Notes under the pieces: model-generated
The model's input: the letters and a program-made list of their open reading frames with translations, nothing else
The model's database searches: none
What the model was told of the DNA's origin: nothing
DNA from: Psammoneis japonica
Lineage: Eukaryota
Length of the DNA: 20,000 bases
Reading direction: 5' to 3'
Assembly: GCA_008632985.1 (NCBI GenBank)
Contig: QPGO01000155.1
Coordinates: 175,444-195,443 of the forward strand
In this document: piece by piece, positions 1 through 18,884 of the stretch
Layout of the letters: each line of letters begins with the position of its first letter
Numbering within the stretch: the first letter of the stretch is position 1
Program-made: the position numbers and the translations under genes

Positions 1-1
1 G

Positions 2-337
2 ACGGATCACCGTGCTTCTGAAAGCGACGATCCTATCCACCAGACGGCGTCAGCAGCGGTGGTACCTTCCACACAGATCCCTTCCAACGACGGTGATGTG
101 AGTCTTCCAGACCAGCACGTTGGTGTAGGGGGGTTGTTGGTCGAGACGGAACAGGCGGAAGAAGAAAACGTTCAAGCACCTGCATCCCTCATTACGGATG
201 GTAGTGCTTCTATCATTCCAAGGCGGTCTGCTCGGCTTAGAGCAGCTTTGGGAAGCGTGTACATCCTCTCTACTGACGGGAGAACTCTTCGAAGGTCCGC
301 TAGAATCTTGAACCGGCGAAATGGCGTCTTGCGGTAG
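2..337 (+). CDS. 3' end of a hypothetical protein (open from the window edge) with an acidic low-complexity stretch and twin RRSAR(L/I) motifs
   Basis: Frame +2 is open from base 2 to TAG at 335-337: ...ETEQAEEENVQ...PRRSARLRAALGSVYILSTDGRTLRRSARILNRRNGVLR*. TpA and CpG content is normal and the Tyr codon is intact. No start is visible. Confidence 0.6.
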   Translation, partial: TDHRASESDDPIHQTASAAVVPSTQIPSNDGDVSLPDQHVGVGGLLVETEQAEEENVQAPASLITDGSASIIPRRSARLRAALGSVYILSTDGRTLRRSARILNRRNGVLR

Positions 338-349
338 TTTGAATGCATG

Positions 350-520
350 CGGGAAAGAATGGGGAAAGGGGAGGGCGGGAATCCGATATAGAAAGAGAGA
401 AACGAGCGGGAGTTAGAGACGGGGAATGGAGTATTTAGAAAAGAGAATACGTCGATTTGTAGAGCGGAAGAAAAAGAATCAGAAAAATGGCGAGGCAGGA
501 AGAAGATTGGGTTCAGGAAG
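350..520 (+). other. Purine (G/A)-rich low-complexity tract downstream of the stop codon
   Basis: gggaaagaatggggaaaggggagggcggga...gaaagagagaaacgag...agcggaagaaaaagaatcagaaaaatgg; strong purine strand bias. Confidence 0.5.
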
Positions 521-807
521 ACCTGTAGGTAGTAACACTCACTCTTGCTATTGTTTGCTTTACCGGTTCCGAATGGATGATTTGAATCTGGCGGCGGGTT
601 TTCTGACCATATGCTGGATCCGTGTGTATGAATAATCATGGTGCAGTTGCTTTCGTGAAAGTGGCGATCGGTAAGTTACGGGTGAGCAGCGATATTCTTT
701 TGACTACAGAATCTTCGTGGCGCCTGCAGTTCGGCACATATCACGCACAGCACGTACCTCTACATTCAACATTGCGGATTCGGCATTGTGGGGATTGAAA
801 ACCCAAT

Positions 808-1280
808 TCCTGATTCAATGATTCCTTGTTAGGACTGAAAAAGCACCATTGGCTGTGGACAGTGTGGCGCTTGCACCGTGGACGGATTCAGCCTTGATTT
901 TGCATGGCGTACTTGACATTTTTTTGATAACTCTACTAGTCGGAACATTTTCTGTTGGGCGTTTCACAACGTAGTATGAATTTTGTTAGGAACACTTGGC
1001 GGGCTTACGGAGAGCATTGAAGAAGATGCACGTTCAAATACATGATGAAAGCTCGTACCTTTACCTAACTCATTCTGCAGGCTTTGTTTATTCAGCGTGT
1101 AGTCTACCAAGCTTTGACTCTGTCCAATGCTAGCGGTTCTCGCCTCTTGCAATTCTTGTTGTTCGATCTTATTGACACTGCTGCTACGGAGTAATTCACG
1201 AAAAAAGTCACAAAAATCTTGTCAATTTCCACTCACAACTCTTCAGAGAGAGGTCACCAATCGTCTTAACCGCAGAGATT
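808..1280 (+). repeat. Copy 1 of a diverged direct (tandem) duplication, offset about 680 nt
   Basis: Blocks cctgattcaatgattcctt / aagcaccattg / ggattcagcctt / tagtcggaac / gtagtatga / aggaacact / aggctttgtttattcagc / gtagtctaccaagc / gttctcgcctct / gcaattcttg / caatcgtc / gcagagatt recur in the same order at 1487-1950. Confidence 0.85.
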
Positions 1281-1486
1281 AAATCTACTTCGACTGACGG
1301 CTATATTTGTGATGTATGGGAGCTGCGATCTGGAATTTCTGCCCCGCGTTAGCTCCACAATCGCTGCCCTGTCGATGGATATTCACCCATTTTCAATACC
1401 TAGACAAAGGCACGGTCCGTTTTGAGCCCTGTAGAAGCATCCTACATGGGTGGTGGCGAATGTCAGTTTGGTCCTACTTGTGGATG

Positions 1487-1950
1487 CCTGATTCGATGAT
1501 TCCTTTTCGAGATTGAAAATAAAGCACTATTGACCATGGACAGTCAGTGTGGCGATTGCACCATGGGCGGATTCAGCCTTTTTTTATGAAGTACTTGGCC
1601 ATCTTTTTTAAATAACGCTATTAGTCGGAACGTTGCTGTTTGGGGTTGCACAAAGTAGTATGATTGTGTAAGGAACACTAGGTAGGCATACGTAGAATGC
1701 ATGGTGAAAGCACATACCTTCAATACACTCGTTCCGTAGGCTTTGTTTATTCAGCATGTACGAGTAGTCTACCAAGCACCAAGCCCAATATAAGTAGTTC
1801 TCGCCTCTCGCAATTCTTGCTGTCAGTCTTGTTGGTCACTGCTTCTACGATTTTTTAGAGCGGGACCAGCAATCGTCGAGATACTACGTACAGGCATCTC
1901 ATAGGTTTCCTGCTCCACCAGAAATTACACCAAAATTGACCAGCAGAGAT
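1487..1950 (+). repeat. Copy 2 of the diverged direct duplication
   Basis: Colinear with 808-1280, with indels and many transition differences. Confidence 0.85.
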
Positions 1951-3377
1951 TCGTGACGCAAGGTGGTTGATGGGCTTGGATCTCAAGCTCCTACAAGAGA
2001 TGTCAAACTGATGCTCGTCATGACTCATGGAGGATGCAACGGTAAAACTTCATGACAGTGCCATCGCGTGGGATCCAACATGGCCTCGTGAACTGGACGT
2101 CAACGTAGGACGGTGCATTTCTCTGAACGACATTCTTGAGTGAAGCGAGCCGGTGAGTTTAGCATCGTTGCACCCAGTTCGCTGCTCGTAATCCCTGCGG
2201 GAGAACTCAAGGGTGGCACATTCTGGATCTTCTGCTTCGACCTGGAGGCCTGAAGGACATATTTTTTTCTTGACGCTAAAAGATCATCTCGACTCGTGCA
2301 ACCGGCAGAGAGCCTTTGCGGGATCGACAAAATACACGAAAGAACTGCACTGGCGAGCGACAGAAAACAGCTTTTCGGCAACCTCAAACCGATGCTCTTC
2401 TTTTGATTTTTGATCAAGTTCTGCAGTTGTACTTCTGTTTCTAAAACCAACATGGACTTAATATTCTAAGACCAAACATGGCTGCTATCCTTCACGACTT
2501 GTTGACTCATCGGTACGCACGCCATTGTGCACTCCGCATTTTTTTTGGGCAGGATGTCGTCAGTCCGTCGCTTCTCCGTCAATTTGAACAATCGCTGTGG
2601 TGCGTGGTGCACAGGCTTGTGCGTGGTGCACGACGCGTGCTGTGGTTACGGAGAACGGTCGCGCATTGTCTGTCGGTGGTTGTAGGAACAGTTGCAGTTG
2701 ACTAGATTGTAAAGAACAACATGGCCAATCAAACCAGGTTGCTTTCTCTAGGGCTGAGTGCTTTTCTGGGGGCTGAAAAGCTCTGCAGCCAATCACCCGA
2801 CTTTTCGAAAAACTCACTCCAAAGAACCCCTCATCTTGTTGGGATGCCAACAATCTGGCGGGTCTGTGACCGCCTGCTGCAATCCGGGCATTTCCTGACT
2901 GTAATCCCAGACAAGTGTCTCTCATTGAGTCAGGTTCTTTTTCATTTCAGTTCAGAACCAATTTGGTTTACAGGCTCCTTGTTTCTAAATTGCACCCTGG
3001 AGCCTGCTTTGAACAGCGGCCATGTTCTTGTGCCTCTGCAACCCCGCGTTTGGCCTTTCTTGACAGTCACTGTGTTTGGTCGCTCCTTCATTTCATCTCA
3101 TGCTGCATGTGATGCAACATCAGCACCTGAAATGTCCTTCTAAATTGCATCCATTTGCAGCCCAACAAACAGCATGGTGAGCTTCTCATTGTCACAATGA
3201 AGCAATTGCAGTCAAAGCAAAACCATGAGACTTGGCAGCCTGCGCACCTTTGCTTCCTGTTGCAACATTCCTGAGGTCTGAAAGCTTGGGGAAGAATCTC
3301 TGCAGCTGTTGGTTTCTCTCTCAAATCATCTGCCAAGGGAAGGCCAAAGGATGCCATTGTGAACAAGTGTCTGGATG

Positions 3378-3655
3378 ACTTGCCTGGCATCAAACAAATG
3401 CGATGGACCTTTGCCTGGCATCAAATGAACACAAGGGACCTTTGCTTGGCATCAAACAGCTGCTGAATGCAGCGGACCTTTGCTTGGTGTCAAACAAATG
3501 CAACCTGCCTGTGCTCAGCATTGAAGAATGAATGTGATGTGCCTTTGCTCAGGATTGAATGAACATGGTGCACCTTTGCTGGGGATCAAATGAGTGCCTC
3601 ACTTTGCTCAGCATCAAATGAATGTGACAGATCTTTGCTCAGAGTCAAATGAGTT
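3378..3655. repeat. Degenerate 31-nt minisatellite, about 9 units
   Basis: Unit resembles ctttgc(c/t)(tg/ca)gcatcaaa(ca/tg)aatg..... The tgc(c/t) anchors fall at 3381, 3412, 3443, 3481, 3512, 3546, 3577, 3605 and 3636 (spacings 31,31,38,31,34,31,28,31). Confidence 0.85.
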
Positions 3656-6600
3656 GAATTTGAATTTCACAATGGAGCATCACAAACGCACTTTGCAGTC
3701 ACTTGGCTCTTCATCTCATCCTTGTTCTTTTCACTTCAAGAACTCTAAAATCAGCACTTTGTCAAACCCAGACTGCATCAGCATGACACATTGTTTTAAG
3801 TTTCTGTTTGCTCTGACTTTTCTGGATCACTGAAACTCAGGCAGGAAGCTTTGGAAGACACTGGACAGAATGGGGCTGGGCTTCCGTTTTCAAAAAACAG
3901 CGAAAGCACTTGCATGCTCTTTTGTCTGCTGTGGCTTTGACTGTTTCAATTTGCCTGTCACCAATCAATTGTTCAACACAACAATTGCCGGCAAGTGCCA
4001 GCGCCCCGTGGACTTTTGACAACAGAATCAAGCAACTTCAATCTTTGAGCTCACAGCTCTGCCCTCTCCAGCAGGGAGCACTGCAGCTTGAGAAACCTGC
4101 TGCATCAGCTGCACACACCAACAAAAGCAAAGCAGGAGTGGCCCTGCACTCTCTGAAGCAGTTGCTGAACAATCTCGCCACTGGGTCCCCACAGGAGCTG
4201 TTTCTGTCATCCAAAGAACCATTCATTGTGCACGACTTCATGTTCTCAAGTGGAGTTTCAAGATTTTGCAAAGTTTGCTGTCACATCCAGCACAAAATGT
4301 CAACCAAAATGTGTGCAAACTGTCTCTTTCCTCATGCATTGCCAGCTCTCAAACTCGTTGGTGTGATGGAGCATTTTGACATGGTTGCCCCATTTCGCCC
4401 ACTGGAAGAACCAACATTTCACACTCCTTTGTTGCTTGTTTGTCTCAAAGATGTGCTCCACTTTTGCAAAAAAATGATCATCATCAAGTCCTTCCCTGAT
4501 GAGGGCTTTGATTGCTCCCTTGCTGAACTTCATGTTGGTCCTGCATTTGACACAACACAGAGCTTGTTCACAAAAAGCAGTTTTGTGGCTTTGATTGTGA
4601 GCACTTGTCAGTCATCAGTGCCACATCATCTCAATGGGCAACAGCAGGCACTGCAGGGTGCTTTGCCACCTCCGGGCACAAGCGCACCCTTGTCATCTTG
4701 GTGCCTCAGTGATGAAGGATGAAATTTCATCTCAGGCTGAAAGCTCAACTTGGTGCTGGTCTTCTTGGAGTGTGAGAACTTGTGGCTTTTGTCATCTCTG
4801 CTGCTGGCAGCAACCACAACTTTGGCCTTGGTCTCCAGGCATTTGGCATTCATCAACTGTGTGAGGCCAGTTTCTGCAAGCACTGAACGCAGCACTTGCA
4901 ACTCTTTGGAGTGAATGTTGAACCCACAAGCCAGTGTTCCCAAAAAGGAATCCTGCCAGGCTTTGTGTGCCTCTTGACACACTTGTCTTGGTTGGTGGCA
5001 GTGGCTGTGGTGTGATGAAAGTTGTCAATGTGAACTTCAATCTTGCGGTGCACAACAGGTGCCCAGTGATGCCAAATGACAAACCAAATGATTCCATCCA
5101 AAGAGCAAGATGAAGCTGAAAGGTGAGAGATCAGCAATGGCGAAACTTTTCCCGGTGGTGCATTGAGGGGGTTGCCCATGGTGCATGAAAGATGCAAAGG
5201 CTTCAGACTTTCTTCTTATCAGCTGCTCACAGCAGTTGTGAAACAGCAGAAAATGAAAACTTGCAAGTGTGTGTGGCAAGAGTGAGCACCACATGATGAT
5301 GGGGCATTGGCAGACAGGGCAACAAGCAGTGGCCTCTGCCAGCCAGTGGCTGTGAAGCAGCAGCACAGCACTCACCAAGGAGGGGACACTGCATCAGTTG
5401 TGGGGCTGCCCAGCAGCAGGGCCATCTGTGTGGCACCATCAAAGCAGCAGCAAAAATCACCAGGCATCCCCACATGTTCCACCAACAAGTCCATCTGAGA
5501 GCAGGTGTTTGTCACAACATCTCAGTGACCATGTCAACATCAGACCATTTGAAGGCCAACAGCTGGGTTTTTGATGACTCAGTCAGGTCAAGGAGGACAA
5601 AGCAGTCTGTTGGGACAAATGCATGCTTTCTCTGCTTCCACCTTCTCAGCTTGCTTTTGCAGCCCAAGAGCTCAGGCTCACAGCACAGCAAGAAAATGAG
5701 GCCACTTCAGATGCAAGGAGTTGTTGAGGCAGAGGGGCAATGTCAACAAAAAAGAGCTCTGGGGTGTCATGTTTTGGCGCAGGCTTGCACTGCCACTGCA
5801 CAAGCTGTGCTGCTGCCTTTGAAAGTCAAAACTGTTGAAACAGCAGCAATTTTGGGCAATCTGGGAGCAGCCATGATCACAGTTGGCATCAACGGCTTTT
5901 CAGTTGCTTGGCATGACATCACTTGAAAGTTGCAGTGTGCTCACTGTCATGACAACAAAGGCAAAGCTTTCCTTGGCTGCACATGGTGTGTGCACCTTGC
6001 TTGGGCACAACAAACATTGCTGGCAATTGTCAACCTCACAAGGAGCACACATGCCCTGCATTGAGAGGCACCCCCAGTCCTTTGCAAGGGTGCAGTTTTG
6101 TGGCTTGTGTTCATTTGCTGTGCAGCTGTTGCTCTTGCACTCATGCATCAGTCTTCATCACAGAGCCAACAGGCTTCAGGCTTTCATGCCTGTTGTGGCC
6201 TGATGCTTGCAGCAACAGTTGTTTCCTTTGCTGAAATGGGGTGGTTGGTGCTGCACCACTGCACTTCAATTCAACGGCATCAAAATGAGAGACAAATCAA
6301 CATCTGAGGCCGTTTGCCCAGTTTTTGATCACTTGCACTAAAAGGGTGTCATTTGCTCTCAACTCAAACACCACTTTCTCATCTGCTGAGCTGCTGTTTG
6401 TGTGTTGGTGCAGCTGGGCTGGCTGCATGTGCTGTCAAGCCAATTTTCTGCCTCAATGGCAAGCTCTTCTTTTTCCCATTGCTTGCCAGTCAGACTGGAA
6501 AATTTGAGAACAACAGCCACCTTTGGCACATCTCCATCAACTGGAGGGGGGCAAGACAGGAAGCATCGCCGCTTTTTTCACTGTCCCAAGAACTGGTGAG

Positions 6601-7225
6601 ATGGTTGTGACAGAGAAGAAGTGCCCATTTGATGGCAGGCACATGCTGCTTTGCCTTCAGCACACATCTGCTGGGCTGCATTTTTTTCTGGCAATGTTGG
6701 CACACTTTCAAGGGCAGCAACATCTGCTCTGCCAATGAAGGCCCCCAGCACCTTCTAAAAAGGCAGCTCTCAAACATGCACAATCTTTGCTGCATCAAGC
6801 ATTTTGGGTGGCTTGGTGGAGGCAAACCAGCTGCAAAACAAAAATGGCTCAGAGCATTGCCAACTGCAAAAGAGCCTCAAATGCACAAAACTTTTTGTTG
6901 TCAAGCTTTTTTGTTGAATCCCAACTGCTTTTGTTCTTTTCAGAATGAAGTCCAGTGTGCACATCTCTGCACTTTGTTGCCATGCCAACAACGTCCAATG
7001 TTGGCACCATCACGGCTCACACACTGCCTCTTTGCAAAGGCATCATCACAAGCAGTGGTGCTGCAGAGTGTTTGCATGATGTCCTCTGTCTGGAAGTCTC
7101 TGTGCTGCTGTGCACAAGGAGCCATGTCTGTGGACAATTTGCAAAAGTCGTGCAGATCAGGGCACATGTGCTGTGCTCTCATGGATCTGAAGACAGCTCT
7201 TGGTGGCACCAATGACCCCCCCCCC

Positions 7226-7422
7226 NNNNNNNNNNNNNNNNNNNNNNNNNNNNNNNNNNNNNNNNNNNNNNNNNNNNNNNNNNNNNNNNNNNNNNNNNNN
7301 NNNNNNNNNNNNNNNNNNNNNNNNNNNNNNNNNNNNNNNNNNNNNNNNNNNNNNNNNNNNNNNNNNNNNNNNNNNNNNNNNNNNNNNNNNNNNNNNNNNN
7401 NNNNNNNNNNNNNNNNNNNNNN
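7226..7422. other. Assembly gap (N run) preceded by a C10 homopolymer
   Basis: N characters at 7226-7422; poly-C at 7216-7225. Confidence 0.99.
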
Positions 7423-10400
7423 GTGCCTGACTGTTCTTTGGTCTTTCATGACATGTTTGTTGCAAACATTGCCAGCTCTCATGTCAAGATGGCATTTCAA
7501 GATGGTGCCATTTGGTTGAGGAGCAAGGGCATCTCACCGCCCATGCTGTGAGCATCATGTGGGGAAGGTGTGCAAATCCAGAGCAAGACAGGGAAGCAAA
7601 TCAGCAGAAGAGCCTCTCATTGTGCAGAGCATGGGTGGCCAAAAGAACCAACTGCTGTGTCAGCTCATTTTCTCCACACAAGGGCAACACCATTGTGGCT
7701 GTGATCCTTGTGAAGAGCCCACCCTTGGTTTCCCAAGTTTTGGTTGTGGATTTTTCATTCTTGATTTTGGTGTGAATTTGCTCAAAATTGTGGTTGACAA
7801 TGTTCCGCCATTGCAGAGAATGTGCAGAGGCTTGTTCTTTGCTTTGCCCAAAGAGGTGCTCACATGAGTGATGACTGCTGGACTGGTGTGAATTGCTTTT
7901 TTGGGGCTTCCCAATGTCCAGCAGTGCGCAAGACTCCTCGAGCAGCGCCAGTTCAGAATCACTGCACATCACAAGAAGTGGGATGTGGCGGTGCTGTTGA
8001 AAATTCTCCAGCCAATCTTGTTCTTCAATGCAACTGGGAGAGTCTGCTTGCATGTCTGGGCAGTTGAGGCTTGGAAGCAGTTGGAAATTAATTTGTCAAG
8101 ACAAAGAAAAAGCACTTCCAAGATTGCTGCAATCAGCTCACAAGTGTTTTTGAAATGGCGGAGGGTTTTGTGGCAGGGTTGTCCCAGAAGAAATTTCCAA
8201 GAAAGGAGATGGGTTTAGCACAGATGCCAATGACACCTGGAAGAAAGAGAGGAACAAGTTGTTGGCAGCACTGTCAATGGAAGGTGTCAAGAAACATTGG
8301 CTTGTCTCAAAAGACCTGTGCTGGCAATTTGCACTGGGATTCACAATTGTCCCATTTTGGCCAAGGAGGCACTGCAGGTGTTGGACACAGGCAGGGCCAA
8401 CAAAAAACCTGAGGGCACAAGTCTTGTGCAAAATGAGAAGAAACAGCTCAAATGCAAAAGGTTGGGCATGTGAAAAAGGACTGTCCTTTGCTCAATGACA
8501 ACAGCGATCATTTGTTGGTGGAGACACATGACATCAGCTGTGGAGAGAAACAAGGCAGTCAATGTGGCACTGGATGGCATGGTTTTCAAGTGTTGTCCTC
8601 CTGCAGCCAGTGTGCATGAGGCCAATCCATTGATGGTGGCTTGTGCAAAGGAGTGTGTTGGAACATTGGGGAGCAAGGCAGTTTTCAACAATTGTGGATG
8701 AGGTGAAGTTGCACTCACATGAACTTTTTGTGAGTTGTGGGTCTTGTGCTCACTTTTCAGCTTTTGCACCTGCTGGCCAACATGGCAACAGTGGCAGCGG
8801 CAATGGAAATGCGGTGTTTGCAATCCACATGCGGCAAGTTTGGGGATCAGTGAGACCAAGTGTGTGCCACATTCAGCAAGCTGTGGAATCACAGCACCGC
8901 TGCAAGACCCCCCTCTGAAGTTTTTTTTGGCACAACAGGCTCCTGCAAAAGGTCAAAAGTGCCCACAAGTGGCCAATCAAGGTCCCACACAGAAAGCATG
9001 CAGGTCCAAGGAAAGGAAGCCATTCTGAACATTTTGGCCCAGTGTCACAAGGCCAATCTCAAAGCCACCAACAGCTGTTCATTTTCACTGTTCCATGCTG
9101 AAATTCACATGTGTGGTGCGTCATCCACAAAAAGGCTGCCCCCACACTTGGAAACCAAAAAGGCATTTTCTGTGCTTGTCATGAGAGAAAAAAAACATGA
9201 TGCTGTTGGTGCGCACACACTTCTTGATGCAGACAATGCTGTCTTGCACCTTGATCAATGGTGCGACAACCAACACATGATCAAAGAACAAGCCCCATGG
9301 CAGAAGATGCAGCATCATTGTTTGTTGTGCAATGTGCATTGCATTGGGCACAATTTCAAGTTGTGACATCATGCACCATGGAAATTTGTGGCTTTTTGTG
9401 CAGTGATGAAGCACAGCACAGTGAACTTGACACCTGCCAAGAAAACAGCAAGCATGCAAGAGCTGCATGTGAGCCCAAGACTCGGCCTCAACTTGCCAGG
9501 ATGTGGTGGTGCAAAGTGCTCAAAGTTGCCACAAGGATGTTCAGATTCTCAGCTTGCCAAAGTGAGGTGACTTTGCCAAATCTGACCTGCCAACCACCTG
9601 GAGAGGCCAGGTGCCACCCTGTCCTCTTCTTGAACAACTCTGAGCTAAAGCCTGCCAGCCAACATGCAAAGGAAAAAGTTGAGAAGGCTGGGTGGTTGTC
9701 TGCCAGGGAGTCTGAGCATCTGATGGCTCAATTGCACAGATGCACCTGCTGCTTGGCTGCTTTAAAAAAGAAAGAGCTGTGCAGAAACAAGTGTGAGACA
9801 ATGAGCATGCTTTTGCGAGATTCTTGCTGGCAATGGCACATGTGCCATGCTGGCAGACACACCAGACAACTTGTCAATCTGCAGAAAAATGCAGCAATTG
9901 GCAAAAGTGCGCCACTCACAAGTGTGCTTGTTTTGTTTGGCAATGGGGCCTGGATTTGACTTCATTCTAGAGTTCCCCAATTTTGCAGCAGAGCTGCAGA
10001 AAGTCTCTCCCACACACACACCAGATGACTTGTTCATTGAACAAAGCAAAGCAAGGGATTTTTTTTCTGACAGAGTGGCAAAATCATGCTCAACAGGAGC
10101 AAAAAAAAGATCCACATGTCTCTCTTTCTTTTTCAACACAGACAAAACCAACAAAAAAGAGGGTGCTGCAGTGTGGCAGTCACCAAGCAAACAATTTTGC
10201 AAAAAGTGTTTCCAAAGAAAGTCTGTTGGGCCTTGTTTGAGCTTTTGAGCAAGGGGGGCTCTGGGGGGCACAATGCAGCAAGAGAAGCAGAGCTGGTTGG
10301 AGGCAGCATGATGATGTGTGTTGTGCAAGCAAGTTTGAGTGGTGGACCTTTCCCCAATTTTTGTTGCTTCTTTTCTCATGTTTGATCATTTTAAAGTGCT

Positions 10401-11077
10401 TGAGCAGTGTGAACAATCTTTAAAAGGTGGTCATTTTTCCTGAAAACAAAGTGACAGGAACAAGCTGCTGTGTGGCTGCCACTGGTTTTGCTGCCTCTTG
10501 GAGCCATTTTTTTTGTCTCTTCTGCTGCATTTGGCTGTTTTTAACAAGAAATGTCAGCATTTTTTACAGTGCAACAAGGAGCTCAGATGCAAAAAGTGAC
10601 TTTCTAACTGAAGTCATTTGGACAGAACAATCAGGAGAGCTGAGTTTTGCTTTTTTTGGTGCACACCATTGGCTGTCAGAAAGACCAAGTGGTGGTTCGC
10701 TGACCTGTGTGGGAGTCTTGTGGGTGATCTGCATGCTGGCATTGAAAAAAGTTTGTTGACTGTGAAGCAACTGTGCAATGTGAAAGACAGCAGAAGAGGT
10801 GACAACAAAATGTTGACAAATTTCAATGCTTGGAAAAGAAGTTTTGCCTCAGACAAGTGAAGCAAAATGGCCACAACATCTGGACATTGCCAATGTTTTT
10901 CATCTGGCTTGCAACATTGGACACTTGTTGCACTTGCCCACGGCATTTTGGTTGTCATGCACCACCAAAGCTGAGTGCAAAATCTCTCTTTTTTGTTTGC
11001 ACAAAAAAAATTGATGTCATCCATGACAGCACAATGCAAAAAATGTGCAAGTGCATGAGTCACCAAGACACTCTCCT

Positions 11078-11146
11078 GTTGTTGTTGTTGTTGTTGTTGT
11101 TGTTGATGTTGATGATGTTGATGATGTTGATGATGACGATGATGTT
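11078..11146. repeat. Compound trinucleotide microsatellite (GTT)9 grading into (GAT/GTT)n
   Basis: gttgttgttgttgttgttgttgttgttgatgttgatgatgttgatgatgttgatgatgacgatgatgtt. Confidence 0.95.
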
Positions 11147-12689
11147 TGCAGCTGGTGCCAAGTTGACAGAGACAAGGGTTGTGAAGAGAAATCTAAAGGA
11201 GTTCCAGAAAGAAAGACACCAAGCATGCAAACATCAGCGAGCTCTCCACAAAACAAAACAAAACAAAGCCACAAAGAGCAACTCAAATTGCAGCCAAATG
11301 ACCAAGTGGGCTGCAGCCTTGGGCTGTTGACCTGTCTTAGAAAATGAAAGTTGCCTTCTCACCTTGGTTGCAACAGCTGTTGGTTCATAAATGGCAGGGT
11401 TCATGGCAGCAGCATGGTGCATTTTGGTGTGCGCAACTTGCAACTTGAGTCACACAAAACACATCATCTTCATTTTGGAGCTCAGCAGTTTTCTTGCGCG
11501 GGTTTGGCACCAAACATGATGCAGAACACACAGAAACAAACCAAAAACCTCATGATTCATTCTAAAGTTTCTCATTTGGAGATCTGTCTGCCCCAGCAGT
11601 GGTGAGCTGCAAGTGGCACAATGCCAGCAAATGGCAGTTCCATGCACAAGCACTGGCCAACCTTTGCGAGACTGGAGGGCTTTGTTGTTTTGCAGCCACG
11701 TTTCTGTGTGAATGTTGGCACAACAAAGTTTGTAAAAATGCCCAGCTGATTGACAAAAACATTGCACACTGCACTCAAAAGTGTGCTGGCTGGCACAACT
11801 GCTGTTGCACTGGATGTTTGCAGGCACTCAGCACACAAGAAAGAGAGGCAAGTTTGGCGCCAATGTTGGCTCCTCCTGTCATGGTGGTGAGTTCCCCCAC
11901 CCAAGCAACCATGGGCTGCTTTGACTGGCAATCATCATGATTTTGCCTCAGTCCAAGTTCCAAAGACACACGCCATCAAACACACACTGGAAACCTGCCT
12001 CTGTTGTGTGGGGCGGGGAAGACCTCACAACAAGAATGACTTGGCTCCGGCAGATCACTCTGATTCGCAATGAGGAAGAGAGGATCCACTCGCCCTTGAC
12101 AGACAACTGAAGTGACCACTGCAATGGTGGCGACAATGTGTTTCAAAGAGTCAAATGGCAATTTTGTGTGCTTTGTGCAACTGACAACTGAGCAAAGTTT
12201 GTCCAGGGTTCAAATGGCACGAGCTCCGAACTCCCGAGACTTCCTTCCTGCAGCTGGATCGCACAACAACAGCACTGCGGTCAGCAAGCAAGACAATGAC
12301 GATGGTGCTTCTGTGTCGCGACGACGACTCTTTGTCTCTTCCTTGGTGACAAACTCATCCATCATGGCTGAGGACAGCACAGTCACAATGCCTCCTTTTG
12401 TCCGTTTGCATGTTCCTTTCATCATGCGTGACAACAACGCATGCCATTGAGCCGGTGCGTTTTGAGGATCTTCTCAGCAATGAAGAACATCGTCATGCAG
12501 CCTCACCACCCTAGACCGAGAGCCCGAAGGATGTGAAAGAACTCTACACAAGTCAGCCATTGGATCACTTTTCTATGGAGGAACTTGTGTCTGACGCTGA
12601 AGGATCTTTGCAGCAGCGGTGCTTCTATTCGGATCGATGCGCAAGGTCATCTTCAACGCATGGAACTTCGTTTTCATCCTTGTGGCAGT

Positions 12690-13545
12690 CTTTGTGGCCC
12701 TGAAAGTGGCGAAGAATGGTCAAGCTTGTACACAACAAGCAGCTGTGGAGATTGGTGTCTTTGGGACTGAGAAAAGACAAGGATTTCTTGGCCATTAACG
12801 TCAAAGCGAAAACCGCAAGATGGTGCACCTGCAATCGTACAGTCCGCATCAGAATCACCTTTGCTTGGTGTTTGAATTGTTGGGGATGAACACACAAGAG
12901 GTTTTGAATCAGCGGCAGTTCAGAGGGTTGCCCTTGACAAAGGTTCGGCCGCTGCTGTTGAAAACAATGGACGGCAGCGTGAAGGAATTGTGTTGGCGAT
13001 CAATTGTTCGACCGAGAAGGATTTTGATTCAAGCAATGTCAAGCCAATTGCTTTCGGTTCGGCTTGCTGTGAAGGACACACGGCTCACACCTACATTCGA
13101 TCTCGGTTTTACCGCAGCCCCAGAAGTTCTTCCACTCAAGGGCCACCCTGCGATTCTGCTTTTTGACATGTGGTCCTTGGGACGCGTGGCGGCAGAACTG
13201 TTCCTCGGATTGTCCATTGCCTCACGGTTATGAACACGATTGGGTGAGGCGAATTTGTGAAACAATTGAACCCATTCCAGACATTGCGCATGCTTGGCGA
13301 AAGGTGCGTGTCATTCTTTTTATTTGATGCTTTCTGTTGAACGGACGCATGTGCTAATTTGTCGTTGCACGCTGCTCGTCGTTGTTCAGTGCTAAATTTG
13401 TCCAAGCACTTTGCAAACTCCATTTCCAAGTCAGAAACTACTTCAACTCCGATGCAGCCACAAACCGGCACAGACAGCGACAAGAAGCCATCATGTTCGC
13501 CTCCACCTAAACAATTGTGGCGCATCAAGACACAGCGAGAATGTG
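12690..13545 (+). pseudogene. YAK1: YAK1/DYRK-family (CMGC) protein kinase pseudogene
   Basis: Motifs across frameshifts: VALKVAKNGQACTQQAAVEIGV (subdomains II-III), HQNHLCLVFELLGMN..EVLNQRQFRGLPL, FGSACCEGHTAHTYIRSRFYRSP/EVL, GHP..DSAF/DMWSLGRVAAELFLGL, YEHDWVRRICETI..IPD, LSKHF, LWRIKTQREC. The HCDLKPEN catalytic loop is deleted or garbled and no glycine-rich loop was found. Confidence 0.88.
13304..13389 (+). other. Spliceosomal intron (86 nt) in the kinase pseudogene
   Basis: AG|GTGCGT donor at 13304, GCTAAT branch-point-like motif at 13353-13358, TTCAG acceptor ending at 13389. Kinase similarity stops and resumes at these points. Confidence 0.7.
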
Positions 13546-13629
13546 TGCGACCCTCTTTTCCGTCAAGAGTTTTCCAATTGCCATTCTTTTTGTCGTCATG
13601 GGTCATGGGTGGTCTGGCACGATTTTGCT

Positions 13630-14332
13630 TTAAAATGCGGCGCCCGTGTTCAACCAAACCCCTTGTTGCTGAGCACGACCTTGGACAAACACATCTTCCA
13701 TGACAGCAGTCACGGCTTCCATTTCAGATGGATCTTCGCTCGCGTCGGAAAAGCTCTTGACAAGGGCGTCCTGAAGTGGTTTGGGCAAGTTCCGGTTGCC
13801 GCGAACGCAAAGCATGCCGTTGGCACGCTCACGCAACAACGACGGGCATCATCGGCAATGGCAACCAAGTCCTGCACGTGTGTCTTGCCGTTCTGAGGCA
13901 TGGCCTGCATCGTCAACAGCATCAGCACAAGGCGACAATGGACAGGTGTTGGCAAAGTGTCGAGTGAGGTGTGCAGTGTCACCTGATCCGACTCAAGCAA
14001 CACCTTCAAGGACGCGTCCTCCTCGGCACCAAATGATTTGTAACTGGCCGCGAGCTTCTTGGGATGCTTTTTTATCCTTTGTCGGGTCCTCAACGATTGT
14101 TGATGTTCTGATGGAGACCGCCCTTGAGATTGTCGACCAAGCCTGAAAACGGGCCTGGTGGATTCGTGCGGCACATGAGATGCTTGATGCTGATGGTCGC
14201 AACCTGTTTGGCAATCTTTGGACAAAGTAGACGCTCTTGACCAACAACCTGGCACTCAATGACAGTCTTAATTACCTCACTTGCACTGTTGGCGGATGAT
14301 TGCAAGTGGACGATGTGAAATCGAGTTTTCAA
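13630..14332 (-). pseudogene. Frameshifted remnant of an unknown protein-coding gene
   Basis: Overlapping minus-strand ORFs read as one helical protein across frames (SANSASEVIKTVIECQVVGQERLL... / IKKHPKKLAASYKSFGAEEDASLKVLLESD... / LPKPLQDALVKSFSDASEDPSEMEAVTAVMEDVF). No family recognised. Confidence 0.35.
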
Positions 14333-14944
14333 AAGCGCGAAAGAGATGTTCTGATTACAGTGCGTTTTCTAATTTTTGTTTTGTTTTCATGATCTTGATC
14401 TGCAGGCCTGACACTCTACAGCGCGCCAACTGATCCCTCTCGAGCCCCAGTCCCAGTCCCATGCCCCATGCCTGCCATGCTAAACCCAACAATCCGTGAG
14501 CTTCTACCCTTGCACGCAAAAAGCCCATCTAATGTTTGTTTCTCGTTTTCTCATTCTATTCCGCCAGTCCTGCAATGGTTTTCGACTTGAACATTGGAAC
14601 AAGTGTTGCTGCTGTTCAACATTGGCTTTCAGAGGCGATCTAGATCTTGCATTCTCTTCGACCGGCACACAAAACCAGTTCCGAAACGGCGGCCAACTCA
14701 CATGTGTCCTCTTGACAATGCATGCCTCAATGCGAGATCTGGACAGCCTCTTCCAACTTTGCTGCTGCAGTTTAAACTCGAGTGCCAAGATGCAAGTGAA
14801 TGCACACCACAAGCTGACATCTGAAACAATTTCTGCCCAACACATCTTCACGACAATGCAGGCCTGAACGAAAAATAAGATGCACAACCACAGACGATCT
14901 TCTCCACCCGCAACAGCAAAAAACTCAGCCTCGTCGCACTCCCC

Positions 14945-16030
14945 CACAACTCGGGAGCCGGACATTCCTCCAGGCACTTGTCAATCGTCTGCCTCTCGCT
15001 CCCATCCATGCATTTAATGTCGCAACACGCCACGAGATCATCATCAAAGTAAACCCTGAGAATCTTGGCCAATGCACGAGTGTTGTTGCGGCAGTGATGC
15101 ACGTCTTGGCCCTTCTCGTACTTGGACGTCGGTTTTTTGGGGGCGGGAGATAGATTCTTTTCTTCTGTCTGTCGCTCTCTGCCGTTGGAGAAGAGGATGG
15201 TGTAGCGCGGAGTTTTGTCGTCAAGGGTGAATGCCAATGATCTTGGCAGAAGCGACGTCGTTGGCATTGCTGTTCGTGCACTTGACGTTCTCACCGACTT
15301 TGCACTGGGGCTTTGGAGGGCTCGGCTTGTGAGGCGATGCTTCAATGTCGTCTTTTTCTGACGTTGGTGTTTTTGGGATGGGCGATGGATTCTTTTCAAC
15401 CGTCTGCCTCTCTCTGTTGTTAGAGAAGAGGACAGTGTAGCATGGAGTTTTGTCGTCGCGGTGAACACTGATGATTTTGGCAGAAGCGACATCGTTCGCA
15501 TTGTTGTTCGTGTGCATGACGTTCTCGCCGATTTTGTGCTGGTGCTTTGAGGGCTCAGCTTGGGAGGCGATGCTGCGATGTCGTCTTTTTCTGACGTTGG
15601 TGTTTTTGGGATGGGCGACAGATTCTTTTCAACCGTCTGCCTCTCTCTGTTGTTAGAGAAGAGGATGGTGTAGTGCGGAGTTTTGTCGTCAAGGTGAATG
15701 CCAATGATCTTGGCAGAAGCGACGTCGTTGGCATTGCTGTTCGTGTACAAAACTCTCTCACCGACTTTGCACTGGTGCTTTGGAGGGCTCGGCTTGACAG
15801 GTGAAGCTTGGACATTGTCTTTTTCTGGTTTGACGTTGCAGTGGCACTTCGGAAGGCTCGGCTTGGGAGGTGAAGCTTTGACGTTGTCTTTTTCTTTAAA
15901 ATCGACGGAGGGTGGGGGGTTGTAGTTTGAAGACGGCTCGTGAGCCACTCCACTGTTGGAAGCAGTGCCGTCAGCAGAGCTGAACGCAAGAAATGGAACA
16001 TCAAAGAAAGAAGGTGACGTTGGAAGCAAG
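14945..16030 (-). pseudogene. Frameshifted gene for a protein with four Tudor/SH3-like repeats joined by Pro/Lys-rich linkers
   Basis: Three near-identical units (x-K-VGE-V-x-TNSNANDVASAKIIGIHLDDKTPxYTILFSNNRERQTVEKNLSP) plus a diverged fourth (YEKGQDVHHCRNNTRALAKILRVYFDDDLVACCDIKCMDGSERQTIDKCL). Linkers are of the EKDxxxASPxKPSPPK type. There is a -1 nt lesion near 15548 and a +1 nt lesion near 15225. The fold assignment is from pattern recognition only. Confidence 0.75.
15130..15830. repeat. Three tandem ~234-nt coding repeats, plus an extra ~66-nt linker repeat to ~15895
   Basis: ggagttttgtcgtc at ~15209, ~15444 and ~15678; ttggcagaagcgac at ~15243, ~15477 and ~15710. Confidence 0.95.
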
Positions 16031-16640
16031 CGTCATGACAACAGGCAGCACAACAAGAGCAACAAAAACTTACGATGCAAATGGCTCATTGACGTCGTAA
16101 CGACACGTCTTGCGTTGCGCCTCCACAAAGTGGCTGCGACGAACGTGGGGAGGCTGGTTAAATTCAGAACAATTCCACCTTGTCTGCTTGGGCAATGCCG
16201 TAGTAAGGATCGCACAGAGCCAGAGGAGAAATGCAACCACAAAGGTTCGGACGATGATCCAGACGTCGATGTTCCTCAACAAGCAACACAAGACGAAGCA
16301 GAGCACCGCGCACACTGGGAACTCTTTAGGATCCCTGCGCAGGCAAGAAATGGCTCGGCCACAGTCACCAATGAGAAACAAAGCGTTCAAGAAGAGGAAA
16401 GCGTACAACATGGTGACATTGTTGATGCGATGCTTTACTTTCTTGCCAGAACTGCGATTGTGAGACGAAGAAAGCACATGGGAAAGTGCGTGCTTGCGCA
16501 CTTCAGATTTTCGCGTGCAGGGAATCGTGCCCGCGAAGTGGCAAGTTGGTTTTGACACAATTTAAACCGGCACTGGGTTTGATCCAAGTAATCATCTCGA
16601 ATCCAAACTCGGAATGCCGCCACAATCTTCATCGTCATGG
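16030..16640 (-). pseudogene. Hydrophobic multi-TM segment, possibly the decayed N-terminal part of the Tudor-like repeat gene
   Basis: Hydrophobic runs MLYAFLFLNALFLIG, AVLCFVLCCLL and IIVRTFVVAFLLWLCAILTT. ORF 16033-16242 is in frame with ORF 14848-16029, separated by one TGA that could derive from CGA. Possible start MTMKIV near 16638. Confidence 0.4.
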
Positions 16641-18109
16641 CCACAGCACTTTTTCTTTGCTCGTTTGCTCCTGACGCGACTTCGCCACAAGTTTGTGAGG
16701 CAACAAATGTGTGTCGTGCTTTCCGTTGACATGCACATGAAAGACACATCATACATTGGTTGTGGGGCTGTTGATGGACAAAATTTTTGTGCTGTTGATT
16801 GATCACTTTTTCGCATGCACTGCCCTGCCAGCGCCTGACCGCACCACAAGACCATGGTCAACACTTTGCTGCTGCGGTCCGGAATCTCTCTCTCAGCAAA
16901 ACCACCTGACACCCTTGCTTTACAATCGCCAGGGGATCGCTGGAAATGACTGTGTCTGGTTTTTTCTCAGATGACCTGCATCCTGTGCAAGGTGGCTCGT
17001 GGAGTGAGTTCCATGCTCTTTGTCCAGCCAGGATGCCAGGAACTTGTGCGATCTGCACGCAATGGTTTCGATCATGCAAGAGCTTCAGAACCATCCCGAT
17101 CACATGGAGATCAGCTTCCAGTCAGAAGAACATTCAAGTCTCCAGATCTGGGGATCTTTCTGAACATGGTTCCACAATCTCCATGGATTGGCTGCTTGTG
17201 CGACGTTGCTTGCTTTGACGGCATCTCCTGTTGCGAGCATGCTGTCAATGCAAAGCTTTGTGGATTCTTTGGATTCTGCTGTTGTTGACCCAACAACAGG
17301 GTCTCATGATTTGACCACTGCACATTGCACCAGTTGCTCAACTTTGTGGAACGAAAAGACCCAGAAACCGGAAATGTCGCTTTTGATGCTGTTCGGACAG
17401 GCATTTTTCGAGATGGGAATGTGGTGCAGTTTGACCCCTTGTCTCCTGCAACGGAACAACCAACATGAGGTGCCTCTGCCTCCTCCCAAAGGTCCAGGTG
17501 GATTGCAGCTGCAGCACCTGAACGGGGCACTGCGTGGCTTCGGATTTGCCCTTTCGGTCATTTTAATTCTTCTTTCCATTGCATTTGGGGTCTGAACCAT
17601 CCGCTGCAGAATGGGCAGAGTCATCAAGGCGTCACAGCCCATTTTCTTGCTTTCAACATGTGGCGGTGTCTTGTCAATGGGGTGGGTCATTCTGTGTGAT
17701 GCTGCAGCCATCTGTGTTTTGCCGCATTGAGTGAAGACAGGGCTCGTGCAATGTTTCCATTGCGCACTCTTGTTTGTGTTGTTGAGGTTGGCCATCATTC
17801 CTTGCATTTCAACATCAAAATTGAGAGCAAAGCGAGATGGATGAGATGTTTCTTCTCAAAGCACACCTTGGCTGTTCATCCTTGGTTTCATTCTTGCGCC
17901 AATGGTCGCTCTCCTGCTTGTTGATGCGGAGACGCTCACAATTTCAATGGGATGGATCTCTTGGCATGGGAGCATGGGCCACTCCAAATGGATGTGTGTG
18001 GGCAGACAGTGGAGACAGGAGGAGCCAGCAAGTCTGACTTGTTTGAAGGGTGCGTGTCTGTGCCAGCCATTGCCAAACACAAGTGAATTGGCAGCAGGGC
18101 TTCCCATGT

Positions 18110-18830
18110 CATCCGGGATGTGGGCAAAACTTTTGTCACTTCTCTCAAATCTTGCGAGTGAGTTTTCAAGTGTTCTGCAACAGGCAAAGTGGAGAGGAGT
18201 GCTTTTCAAGTGCAGAGGAAGTGTGGATTCATTCCAGTTGAGTTTGCCCTGGGCCCGTCTCTTGATCTAGAGAGTGCAGCCAAGGCTGACCCCGAAACCT
18301 TTTCTGAACATCTGTTTGGATCTGCCAGTCGCAGTGATGATGTGCACAAAGATTTTGGATGGAAATCAATTGGGATGCTGAAAGCAATGATTGGGCAGGC
18401 TGCAGGAGGGATGGTGGCTGGGACACAACAAGCAGCAGTGATGACATGGTCGAGAACCATCACATTGAGAGCACTTTGGATCAAAATGTCAAGGAAATGA
18501 ACAAAGAATGCAGTGCCAAAGGAATTGAATGTTGCTGCACATTTTCCAATCTTAGAGGAGATGTGACTTTGATTGCACCTCGCCCAGAGGAGTCTGTCTC
18601 CATTGCTCAGAACATTGGATTCGCGCATCTTGCCAAATGTGTTGAGCAGAGATCCTCAGAAGAGGCAGGAGAGCTGAAGTCTTTGGTTGCAAGAGAGTGT
18701 GATGAGATGCCAATGAAGCACAGGGGCTCAAATCAACTGGCATTCCTGTCCACAACAAATGACTTGGTGGTTCATTTTTGCATTTCCAACTGGAGCAACT
18801 TTCAAAGTGTTGCCACTGTGAAGCATTCTG
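18110..18830 (+). pseudogene. DUF6940-like protein pseudogene
   Basis: Across frames: SEFSSVLQQAKWRGVLFKC, VEFALGPSLDLESAAKADPETFSEHL, TFSNLRGDVTLIAPRP, FAHLAKCVEQRSSEEAGELKSLVA, AFLSTT / LGGSFLHFQLEQLSKCCHCEAF. These match my recollection of the family pattern FEFVL..ADP.AF.EH, F.NLGGDA.L..P, Y.HLA.F, WLSTSGLGV.WLH.RLD..PKYY.Y. Confidence 0.75.
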
Positions 18831-18884
18831 TCTGGCATTGGAATCAGCAAGTGCGTGAGAAAATTTTGTTTGCTCAGCGGCGTG

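Follow-up and report, generated by a model that had tools for sequence, protein, structure and literature searches.

Introduction

The process closest to the one considered here is that of Bigelowiella natans, in whose mutation-accumulation lines integrated viral and foreign DNA undergoes TpA>TpG/CpA hypermutation (Mettrop et al., bioRxiv 10.64898/2026.01.13.699255). According to the main text of that preprint, 230 of the 231 de novo mutations in hypermutable regions were A>G/T>C, all on TpA, the rate was raised 1000-fold in a region-specific and line-specific manner, and the events arose in integrated DNA present as a single copy, while cells were growing vegetatively; a candidate ADAT2 homologue, Bn78255, is named there on sequence and predicted fold only. 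Domain-level TpA hypermutation is already published in that work (10.64898/2026.01.13.699255), the main text of which stays at the dinucleotide level and, on a word search, makes no mention of flanking bases or CpG. What is added here is a T-A-Y preference, protection by A-runs, additive behaviour of the two adenines of a site and a lagging loss of CpG.

Fungal RIP, a comparison also drawn in the preprint (10.64898/2026.01.13.699255), is alike in being a genome defence that introduces transitions in a dinucleotide context across repeated or foreign DNA, but it turns CpA into TpA and yields TpA-rich, AT-rich DNA, the reverse of the TpA to CpA/TpG change described below. Among deaminases, TadA-type pockets touch both flanking bases (PMC10354150), a TadA-8e variant is reported with a YAC preference (review PMC13109818), and amphioxus ADAT2 acting on DNA favours the context GAA when the target is A and TCG when it is C, as far as the available text of these sources goes.

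Results

Layout of the window

The window is a stretch of 20,000 nucleotides from Psammoneis japonica (contig QPGO01000155.1, positions 175,444 to 195,443), and its features are collected in Table 1. Three sequencing runs of one sample (X1, X2 and X3) were available for comparison. The contigs of X2 skip 327-543, 649-758, 951-1059 and 1635-1718 with CT..AC ends, and these skips therefore correspond to GT..AG introns on the minus strand; X3 contributed no contig to the window.

Table 1. Features of the window, in window coordinates.
Feature	Positions	Strand	Basis or remark
Spliced host gene; undepleted flank used as background	1..2521	minus	intron pattern and dinucleotide ratios
Domain A, almost without TpA, poor in CpG, non-coding-looking	2987..12511		dinucleotide statistics
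21 surviving TpA	3141..11734		typically T-run/Y-TA-A-run, e.g. TTCTAAA, TTTAAAA
Half-site TTAT, TTGT in run X1 (G at 5218)	5217..5218	+	TAY adenine apparently converted; single case
Sub-domain with zero TpA and normal CpG density	11970..12511		12001-12500: 0 TpA, 21 CpG
Domain B, partly depleted, multi-copy repeat	12512..16921		dinucleotides and X1 depth
Tandem repeat, 233-bp unit, 2.9 copies	15125..15827	+	within domain B
Domain C, TpA-depleted, CpG half-depleted	16922..20000		dinucleotide statistics
308-aa open frame, weakly metallophosphoesterase-like	18341..19264	+	within domain C

The background (1-2500) contained 112 TpA, with an observed/expected ratio (o/e) of 0.64 for TpA and 0.94 for CpG. 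Domain A (9.5 kb; statistics over 3001-12500) contained 21 TpA, where about 700 are expected from base composition (o/e 0.03), together with low CpG (0.16) and elevated CA (1.89) and TG (1.81); about 95% of its TA dinucleotides are gone, turned into TG/CA. The nearest flanking TpA at normal density, at 2986 and 12512, define its edges. GC content was about 48%, ranging from about 0.43 to 0.51 across domain A, without AT enrichment. The sequence of domain A was corroborated by independent X1 contigs; the X2 contigs left it uncovered, which is not evidence of silence. Domain B (over 12501-17000) retained 55 TpA (o/e 0.20) and most of its CpG (0.86), with CA at 1.45 and TG at 1.38, and domain C (over 17001-20000) retained 7 TpA (o/e 0.04), with CpG at 0.36, CA at 1.86 and TG at 1.58. 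Summed X1 depth was 500-1400 in domain B versus about 90-130 in single-copy parts, and marked all of domain B and parts of domain A as multi-copy. The preprint delimits hypermutated clusters as at least three consecutive 1-kb windows having a Rho TpA value ≤0.43 together with a Rho CpA+TpG value ≥1.52 (10.64898/2026.01.13.699255, main text); domains A and C fall within both thresholds, whereas domain B passes that for TpA and fails that for CA+TG. As in the preprint's account of B. natans, TA was changed to TG/CA on both strands, in domains that are unannotated and partly repetitive.

Open reading frames of at least 75 aa in domain A matched no family in a Pfam search, and among 130 translations from the window Pfam gave sub-threshold matches and DUF6940 only, with no viral or transposon family. 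The DUF6940 match belonged to the 308-aa frame (E=1.3e-7; 32.5 bits, the cut-off being 27). One homologue of this frame, P0001, has PF00149 (E=8e-10), and in the Atlas it lies nearest to clusters of calcineurin-like phosphoesterases, with a score of 0.90. As to the origin of the domains, viral-contig scans gave no match and homologue searches none beyond P0001, a weak match. An Rfam scan found nothing, no terminal repeats bounding the domains were found, and self-BLAST of the window detected no internal copies apart from the 233-bp tandem repeat and, within the background, a pair that is 70% identical.

The 233-bp repeat displays the hypermutation process between its own copies, although its sites are too few for testing a flanking rule. 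Twenty YR-step columns vary, 28 of the 37 inter-copy transitions lie in YR steps, and TA is kept in at least one copy at 3 columns; TG in one copy stands against CA in another at 7 columns, which by construction carry no information on preference.

Context of the surviving TpA

An earlier note on this DNA had counted about 21 TpA by eye, most of them YTAR; enumeration of all TpA in 3001-12500 gave exactly 21, with the same positions and tetramers: 17 YTAR, 4 half-matches and no RTAY. The YTAR sites (CTAA x8, TTAA x6, TTAG x2, CTAG x1) lie at 3141, 3746, 3797, 6339, 6756, 8089, 8216, 9646, 9763, 9968, 10392, 10421, 10542, 10605, 11194, 11338 and 11563, and the half-matches are TTAT (5217), TTAC (10565), ATAA (11388) and GTAA (11733). 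Thirteen of the 21 cluster in 9646-11733. A T stands two bases before the T in 16 of 21, and an A two bases after the A in 15 of 21.

The expectation of roughly a quarter YTAR by chance held under four nulls, which gave 20-25%. The probability of at least 17 of 21 was 1.2e-7 under simple chance (25%), 2.5e-9 against the TpA of 1-2500 (22/112, 19.6%), 2.2e-8 against in-domain CA/TG (482/2145, 22.5%) and 2.4e-8 against all in-domain pyrimidine-purine steps (508/2248, 22.6%). Survivor classes in domain A also differed strongly from the background (Fisher's test, 1.1e-7), the opposite of the matching contexts that would have spoken against a preference; this background is a single host gene of just 2.5 kb with 112 TpA, which may differ from the ancestral composition of the domains.

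Since the YTAR pattern had been picked post hoc, replication in the other domains was needed. Adjacent domain B showed the bias in weaker form, its YTAR/half/RTAY counts being 19/30/6 of 55, against 22/59/31 in the background, with an excess of YTAR (P=0.029) and a deficit of RTAY (P=0.0099). Domain C by itself (3/3/1 of 7) exhibited no significant bias, and B and C pooled differed from the background (chi-square P=0.012). Expressed as the TpA fraction of YR steps in YxxR/half/RxxY contexts, the values were 0.156/0.187/0.226 in the background, 0.033/0.003/0 in domain A, 0.073/0.053/0.023 in domain B and 0.016/0.008/0.006 in domain C. Because transitions keep purine/pyrimidine identity, the skeleton of domain A (508/1211/529 by class) indicates that its ancestor was not YTAR-rich; T-versus-C flanks may themselves be altered by hypermutation.

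The sites might not be survivors at all, having been newly made after hypermutation or kept by selection for TAA/TAG stops on both strands or for signals such as TTCTAAA. YTAR does place a TAR stop on both strands, TAA occurs on the plus strand in 16 of 21, TTCTAAA occurs three times among the TpA, and the half-sites TTAT and ATAA could come by transversion in T- or A-runs. New TpA arising from CA/TG, however, would be YTAR in 22.5% of cases (482/2145; P=2e-8), the open frames of domain A lack a family match, and TGA stops are plentiful; moreover, the graded classes, the recurrence in domain B and the additive fit given below are as expected from differential loss rather than from selection on a few sites. 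We therefore consider such an origin very improbable for the set as a whole. Some present TpA may be new mutations: position 6916 reads TTGA here and TTAA in X1, a difference that could have arisen in either direction.

Identity of the converted adenine

TAY and RTA are reverse complements, and the earlier note was right that survivors alone cannot separate them. A 5'-purine rule, in which the R-T-A adenine is preferred and its 3' neighbour is irrelevant, fits the 17/4/0 classes equally well, and it predicts YCAY/RTGR products at half-sites. The opposite products dominate. YTGY+RCAR outnumbered YCAY+RTGR by 732:423 in domain A, 247:155 in domain B and 179:147 in domain C (background 93:86), which points to the T-A-Y adenine as the target. 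The excess in domain A was present on both strands (358 and 374 versus 196 and 227), and 16 of the 17 depleted 1-kb windows shared it. Relative to the background, the shift was modest (Fisher's test: P=0.004 for domain A, P=0.036 for B and P=0.58 for C), and the window 2001-3000 already had a ratio of 49:31, so that the intrinsic ratio may exceed 1. TGX versus CAX compared with the background for each single 3' base was underpowered (P=0.02-0.8).

The product excess in domain A is confounded with CpG decay; the share of half-site loss passing through the pyrimidine-followed adenine was nevertheless at least 0.58 there at any contribution of CpG decay. Domain B, with CpG intact, gave a share of 1.02 (0.62-1.55; P(≤0.5)=0.006). 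The products thus favour T-A-Y over R-T-A as the converted adenine, i.e. a 3'-pyrimidine over a 5'-purine rule, the latter being decidedly improbable. Among the 40 of 417 differences between X1 and the window that were listed, one was TA>TG (at 5218) and two were TG/CA doubles, each of which may have arisen in either direction.

A T immediately precedes the target adenine, the loss being TpA-specific: AA is not depleted (o/e 1.32), and the drop in AT is modest (0.91 to 0.74), as expected with TAT turning into TGT. The TG:CA balance stayed within 0.45-0.55 in all 1-kb windows of domain A, which indicates that both strands were targeted.

With regard to the base that is hit, the products identify, by the Y:R flank, a base pair, an A>G on one strand being a T>C on the other; modification of the T in 5'-R-T-A-3', for example by an oxidation that makes it mispair with G, would leave the same footprint. 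The earlier note's choice of adenine is in this respect one of two chemistries compatible with the sequence, and the enzyme named for B. natans is itself only a candidate ADAT2 homologue (10.64898/2026.01.13.699255, main text). The window offers no positive evidence for thymine chemistry, and adenine deamination, which on the literature available has precedents on DNA, offers a known and simpler way to arrive at A:T>G:C; we regard the thymine alternative as rather improbable.

Rates and ranking of flanking bases

A model in which the two adenines of a site are converted independently reproduced the class counts in domain A (YTAR/half/RTAY expected 17.1/3.7/0.1, observed 17/4/0) and in domain B (expected 20.5/27.0/7.5, observed 19/30/6). 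Adenines before a pyrimidine were converted at an estimated 4.4 (2.8-9.2) times the rate of those before a purine in domain A, 3.0 (1.5-12.4) times in domain B and 1.6 (0.7-4.2) times in domain C, which fits a conversion 3- to 4-fold faster when the adenine is followed by a pyrimidine. About 80% of YTAR sites in domain A have also been lost, so this is a difference in rate and not immunity.

Survival by 3' base (A/G/C/T), as a percentage of the background fraction, was 15.6/5.6/0.8/1.2 in domain A, 46/29/24/10 in domain B and 11/4.2/3.3/3.6 in domain C. The rank A > G > C was common to all three domains, with T roughly equal to C; 3' T was at least as susceptible as 3' C, and in domain B C was about equal to G. 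Protection extended further downstream. TAAA made up 19 of 26 TAA in domain A, against 388/1226 at other YR-A sites (P=2e-5), and 20 of 40 in domain B, against 157/599 (P=0.0016); survivor adenines had A at +2 in 71% (background 28%) and at +3 in 55% (background 30%). Thus, of the motif originally put forward (TAY and/or RTA), the TAY half is favoured by the half-site products, but the purine/pyrimidine rule is a simplification: the main protector is a 3' A, G is intermediate, and protection reaches into A-runs at +2/+3.

This reach also suits an explanation in DNA structure, by which TpA of the RTAY class, lying in alternating purine-pyrimidine sequence, would unstack or flip readily, whereas TpA at a T-run/A-run junction would be shielded by rigid A-tracts. 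The protection is A-run-specific at +2 and +3, and the order of susceptibility, RYRY > mixed > YYRR, tracks alternation. A pocket reading two or three 3' bases gives an equal pattern, however, and 3' A differs from G, as does 3' C from G in domain A, so that the effect is not purely one of purine versus pyrimidine; on balance we find a structural cause unlikely. The suggestion that flanking specificity betrays an enzyme is plausible and fits the rate published for B. natans, while the pattern as such is shared by an enzyme pocket and DNA structure.

ADAR favours a 3' G, whereas here 3' G is only intermediate and 3' T the most susceptible. ADAR-like editing of element dsRNA, fixed into DNA through an RNA intermediate, would share the A>G change and the preferred 5' U/T (U is favoured before the edited A according to the main text of 10.64898/2026.01.13.699255). 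It would differ in its 3' preference and in its strand behaviour, since TG and CA are balanced in each 1-kb window of domain A and the DNA strands were converted equally; an RNA intermediate is not evident, and the published de novo events in single-copy DNA (10.64898/2026.01.13.699255, main text) also speak against this route, which we hold to be extremely improbable.

Loss of CpG

The CA+TG excess of about 830 in domain A corresponds to about 400 lost TpA and about 400 lost CpG. CpG is intact where TpA is gone or going, in 12001-12500 and in domain B, and the former, with its 0 TpA and 21 CpG, makes the two losses separable. CpG depletion would thus be a second, slower process trailing the loss of TA, with deamination of methylated cytosine as its simplest probable cause. 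Such 5-methylcytosine decay agrees with the CpG ratios of domains A and C, with TG/CA products and with CpG transitions accounting for 8 of the 26 X1-versus-window differences in domain A among the differences listed, but it leaves the loss of TpA unexplained. A literature search on cytosine methylation in B. natans found nothing relevant.

A dual A/C deaminase with a TCG preference like that of amphioxus ADAT2 was considered for the CpG loss and rejected, as there is no TCG-specific loss: CpG survival in domain A was equal after T (0.026/0.231) and after A (0.028/0.258).

Discussion

We read the window as a normal host gene (1-2521) adjoined by no less than 17 kb of silenced DNA, foreign or repetitive, which has undergone TpA-directed A:T>G:C hypermutation, as measured directly in the B. 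natans lines, with a flanking rule, and assign this reading a probability of roughly 0.6. The locus carries a context bias that is replicated in a second domain, class counts that fit two additive adenines, and an excess of T-G-Y/R-C-A products. The chemistry would be adenine deamination on DNA. A palindromic TpA would offer two adenines, one on each strand, and conversion of either would destroy the site. The chance of conversion would be set by the base after the adenine on the same strand, being highest for T or C, intermediate for G, lowest for A and lower still for AA or AAA. RTAY, with two exposed adenines, would be lost first, and the best survivor would be YTAR, typically as T-run, TA, A-run, because purines follow both of its adenines.

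In the tRNA substrate of TadA and ADAT enzymes U33 precedes the target A34, and we know of no natural ADAT2/3 tRNA substrate (A34) with U35, i.e. with a 3' T context. The likeness of T-A-Y to the TadA motif, raised in the earlier note, would on this footing be an analogy: a T/U precedes the target A in both cases, and the 3' pyrimidine would fit U-A-C as well as the YAC of the TadA-8e variant, as described in the available text of the review (PMC13109818), while a 3' T serves here no less well than a 3' C. The candidate enzyme would be a deaminase of the TadA/ADAT type that recognizes 5'-T-A-Y-3' in the way that U33-A34-C35 is read by TadA. Compared with amphioxus ADAT2, as far as its available description goes, adenine loss is here at TA and not at GA, and CpG is lost to no greater extent in TCG than in ACG. 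By analogy, T-A-Y together with A-run protection may speak for a pocket like that of TadA and against both ADAR and the GAA preference of ADAT2. The sole natural ADAT2 known from these sources to edit DNA prefers GAA for adenine and not TA, which counts against an ADAT2-type reading.

A more specific proposal, which we put forward tentatively and with considerable doubt, is a natural DNA adenine-editing defence whose specificity could be read from the remains of a single hypermutated domain; it would act on the strands independently and read at least T(-1), +1 and +2/+3, with T-A-Y favoured and T-A-A-A refractory, and with a separate, slower CpG decay of the silenced DNA to follow.

Mutational processes are customarily traced to an enzyme by their preference for flanking bases, as with TC for APOBEC3 and WRC for AID. 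The agent of algal TpA hypermutation having been left open in the published work (10.64898/2026.01.13.699255, main text), the flanking-base rule found here can be checked against the 231 existing de novo mutations and gives an oligonucleotide assay for candidate proteins. It also explains why hypermutated domains are never fully TpA-free, and ranks domains by exposure, TpA loss coming earlier and CpG loss later. If the footprint is that of a TadA/ADAT-derived enzyme on chromosomal DNA, the T-A-Y/A-run rule would be an assay for identifying that enzyme, which would itself be a natural adenine base editor serving eukaryotic genome defence, in a direction opposite to RIP.

Dinucleotide composition and separate loss of TpA and CpG

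The window (20 kb, GC near 48%, with a single gap of N at 7226–7422) contained 204 TpA by dinucleotide count, which were spread very unevenly. In domain A, the observed/expected ratio (o/e) was 0.16 for CpG, 1.89 for CA and 1.81 for TG. The CA+TG surplus of this domain over the flank, ~830 dinucleotides, matched its missing TpA (~400) plus missing CpG (~400), indicating that both were drained by transitions into CA and TG with GC content unchanged. TG and CA were in balance across every 1-kb window of domain A; thus both strands were equally affected. Independent contigs from X1, a DNA sequencing run (X2 being another run of the same sample), spanned domain A at approximately single-copy depth with 0–10 differences per contig, and this agreement shows that the sequence is real. 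Domain A also contains tandem repeats of a degenerate 31-bp unit (CTTTGC..CATCAAA) and an array of TGT/TGA trinucleotides (3380–3654 and 11077–11146).

Features of the window and their TpA and CpG content
Feature	Coordinates	Strand	Description
Flank (undepleted)	1–2500		112 TpA, o/e 0.64; CpG o/e 0.94
Spliced gene	1–2521	-	four X2-contig joints with CT..AC ends (327–543, 649–758, 951–1059, 1635–1718)
Domain A	3001–12500		21 TpA against ~700 predicted from base composition; TpA o/e 0.03
Domain B	12501–17000		55 TpA, o/e 0.20; CpG intact, o/e 0.86
233-bp tandem repeat	15125–15827		domain B; 2.9 copies, ~83% alike
Domain C	17001–20000		7 TpA, o/e 0.04; CpG o/e 0.36
308-aa open frame	18341–19264	+	domain C; DUF6940 match; one PF00149 homologue

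Between 12001 and 12500 there were 0 TpA but 21 CpG, and in domain B 80% of TpA had gone with CpG retained. Since CpG was kept where TpA was gone or going, the two losses are separable, and CpG loss represents a separate, slower process. This decay is still visible in domain A, where 8 of 26 listed differences between X1 and the window were CpG transitions. One listed X1 difference, TTAT>TTGT at 5217–5218, is a converted adenine with a 3′ pyrimidine (TAY). At 5513–5514 and 7812–7813, the window's CA and TG read TG and CA in X1; double differences of this kind are what one would expect had an ancestral TA (or CG) been converted separately in each of two lineages or alleles.

Flanking bases of surviving TpA

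The earlier note had listed the 21 TpA of domain A with their tetramers, every one of which proved correct on exact listing: 17 were YTAR (CTAA ×8, TTAA ×6, TTAG ×2, CTAG ×1), four were half-sites matching on one side, and none was RTAY (17/4/0 in this order). The YTAR share by chance was taken as 19.6% from TpA in the undepleted flank (22/112), as 22.5% from CA/TG within the domain, which applies if the sites were new mutations, or as 22.6% from all pyrimidine-purine steps within the domain. Of these nulls the third serves best: transitions keep purine/pyrimidine identity and the ancestral R/Y skeleton therefore remains readable; this skeleton (508/1211/529) was not YTAR-rich. Depending on the null, the probability of at least 17 YTAR among 21 was between 1.2e-7 and 2.5e-9.

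As the pattern had been chosen post hoc, replication was sought in domains B and C. Domain B, a half-depleted and unrelated sequence, showed 19/30/6 against a background of 22/59/31, with an excess of YTAR (P=0.029) and a deficit of RTAY (P=0.0099). Domains B and C pooled gave P=0.012, and domain C by itself (3/3/1) was not significant. The bias of the survivors was confirmed and is far beyond chance, and the context preference claimed in the earlier note was supported by domain A and by its repetition in domain B. Thirteen of the 21 survivors of domain A fall in 9646–11733, a 2.1-kb stretch that is more AT-rich (GC 0.42–0.44), which suggests a sub-element less exposed or richer in A-runs.

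In each of the three domains, survival by the 3′ base fell in the order A > G > C, T lying close to C (survival as % of the background fraction for A/G/C/T: domain A, 15.6/5.6/0.8/1.2; domain B, 46/29/24/10; domain C, 11/4.2/3.3/3.6); T and C were left unranked, since T/C flanks may have been converted themselves. The flanks of YTAR tetramers cannot have been changed by the process itself, and their estimated survival in domain A was 6/~12 for TTAA, 10/~49 for CTAA/TTAG and 1/~21 for CTAG, the order predicted by additive rates with A below G. The preference extended further 3′: the +2 base of survivor adenines was A in 71%, 47% and 64% in domains A, B and C, respectively, versus 28% in the flank, and the +3 base was A in 55% in domain A versus 30% in the flank. 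TAAA made up 19/26 of TAA in domain A versus 388/1226 at other YR-A sites of the same domain (P=2e-5), and 20/40 versus 157/599 in domain B (P=0.0016), the usual layout being a T-run, TA and an A-run (e.g. TTCTAAA, TTTAAAA). Other dinucleotides shifted in agreement: GC rose from 1.03 to 1.40 while AT and AC fell, as predicted from TAC>TGC and TAT>TGT, and a rise of AA with a fall of GA fits CGA>CAA. Single-base tests of TGX versus CAX against the small flank were individually weak (P=0.02–0.8). With a background of only 2.5 kb and an ancestral sequence readable as its R/Y skeleton, these data support T-A-Y as susceptible and T-A-A(-A) as refractory; a DNA-structure effect is a possible, less likely source of the context bias.

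Additive rates and the converted A:T pair

We modeled the adenine on either strand of a TpA as converted independently of the other, its own context fixing the rate, so that YTAR has two slow adenines, half-sites one slow and one fast, and RTAY two fast ones. Two rates were fitted per domain, with 95% intervals by bootstrap. Expected counts were 17.1/3.7/0.1 in domain A (observed 17/4/0; fast/slow 4.4, 2.8–9.2), 20.5/27.0/7.5 in B (19/30/6; 3.0, 1.5–12.4) and 2.9/3.2/0.9 in C (3/3/1; 1.6, 0.7–4.2). The fit supports additive behavior of both adenines of a TpA, with both strands affected. It also indicates that YTAR, ~80% of which was lost in domain A, is not immune and that the preference amounts to rates differing a few-fold.

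The earlier note correctly held that survivors cannot separate TAY from its reverse complement RTA, an adenine preceded by purine-T, and proposed comparing YTAY>YTGY with YTAY>YCAY. Conversion of the TAY adenine turns YTAY into YTGY, conversion of the opposite-strand RTA adenine turns it into YCAY, and RTAR mirrors this. The ratio of YTGY+RCAR to YCAY+RTGR was 93:86 in the flank and 732:423, 247:155 and 179:147 in domains A, B and C, respectively, and hence favored the 3′-pyrimidine rule. The excess was strand-symmetric in domain A (358 and 374 versus 196 and 227) and present in 16 of 17 depleted 1-kb windows. In domain B, where intact CpG means that CpG decay does not confound the counts, TAY-type products gained 79 against an estimated half-site TpA loss of 77, with no gain of the RTA type; the share of loss through the TAY adenine was 1.02 (0.62–1.55, bootstrap; P(≤0.5)=0.006). 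The share in domain A was at least 0.58 whatever CpG decay added, and 1.13 (0.85–1.50) if CpG decay splits evenly. The product counts thus place the change at the A:T pair adjoining the pyrimidine. The sequence reads alike whether the chemistry acts on this adenine or on the thymine that it pairs with in R-T-A; thymine-directed chemistry is a possible, less likely route.

Genes and repeats in the domains

The spliced gene has at least four GT..AG introns and an internal duplication (806–1188 versus 1484–1849, 70% identical); a search for its protein family found none. Among ORFs of at least 75 aa in the domains, nothing exceeded the Pfam threshold apart from the 308-aa frame, and scans of viral contigs and a further homologue search returned no matches. 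The closest Atlas clusters of this frame were calcineurin-like phosphoesterases, its likeness to metallophosphoesterases being weak, and it may be a leftover gene of an invaded element. Summed X1 depth was 500–1400 at 7338–9338 and 12674–16675 versus ~90–130 elsewhere, indicating that part of domain A and all of domain B belong to multi-copy repeat families. The 233-bp repeat has 20 variable pyrimidine-purine steps, within which 28 of its 37 transitions fall; TA, TG and CA alternatives share columns, and in seven columns one copy carries TG where a different one carries CA. It is a small natural paralog experiment that shows hypermutation between copies.

Relation to known systems

The native site of TadA is U33-A34-C35 and ADAR favors a 3′ G; A34 tRNAs are not known to carry U35. 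From the context rule, it is a reasonable inference that the agent would be a TadA-like adenine deaminase, a better fit than ADAR or the amphioxus enzyme. Amphioxus ADAT2 on DNA is described as preferring GAA when it edits A and TCG when it edits C, and TadA-type pockets as touching both flanking bases (PMC10354150); a review gives YAC as the preference of a TadA-8e variant (PMC13109818).

A preprint on Bigelowiella natans (bioRxiv 10.64898/2026.01.13.699255) describes mutation-accumulation lines in which two integrated viral regions mutate ~1000-fold above the rest of the genome, with 230 of 231 changes being A>G/T>C, every one at a TpA and in some lines only. It reports 124 genomic clusters of 1-kb windows with lowered TpA and raised CpA+TpG, and proposes an ADAT2 homologue as the candidate enzyme. 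Domain A passes its TpA-cluster thresholds, so the phenomenon has already been described at the domain level. The preprint's main text stays at the dinucleotide level, a term search of it finding no mention of flanking bases or CpG, and its ‘specific mutation motif’ (Figure 2B) and Table S2 may bear on this. The window represents a further example of a newly described type of system, to which the context rule adds a new, readily testable detail.
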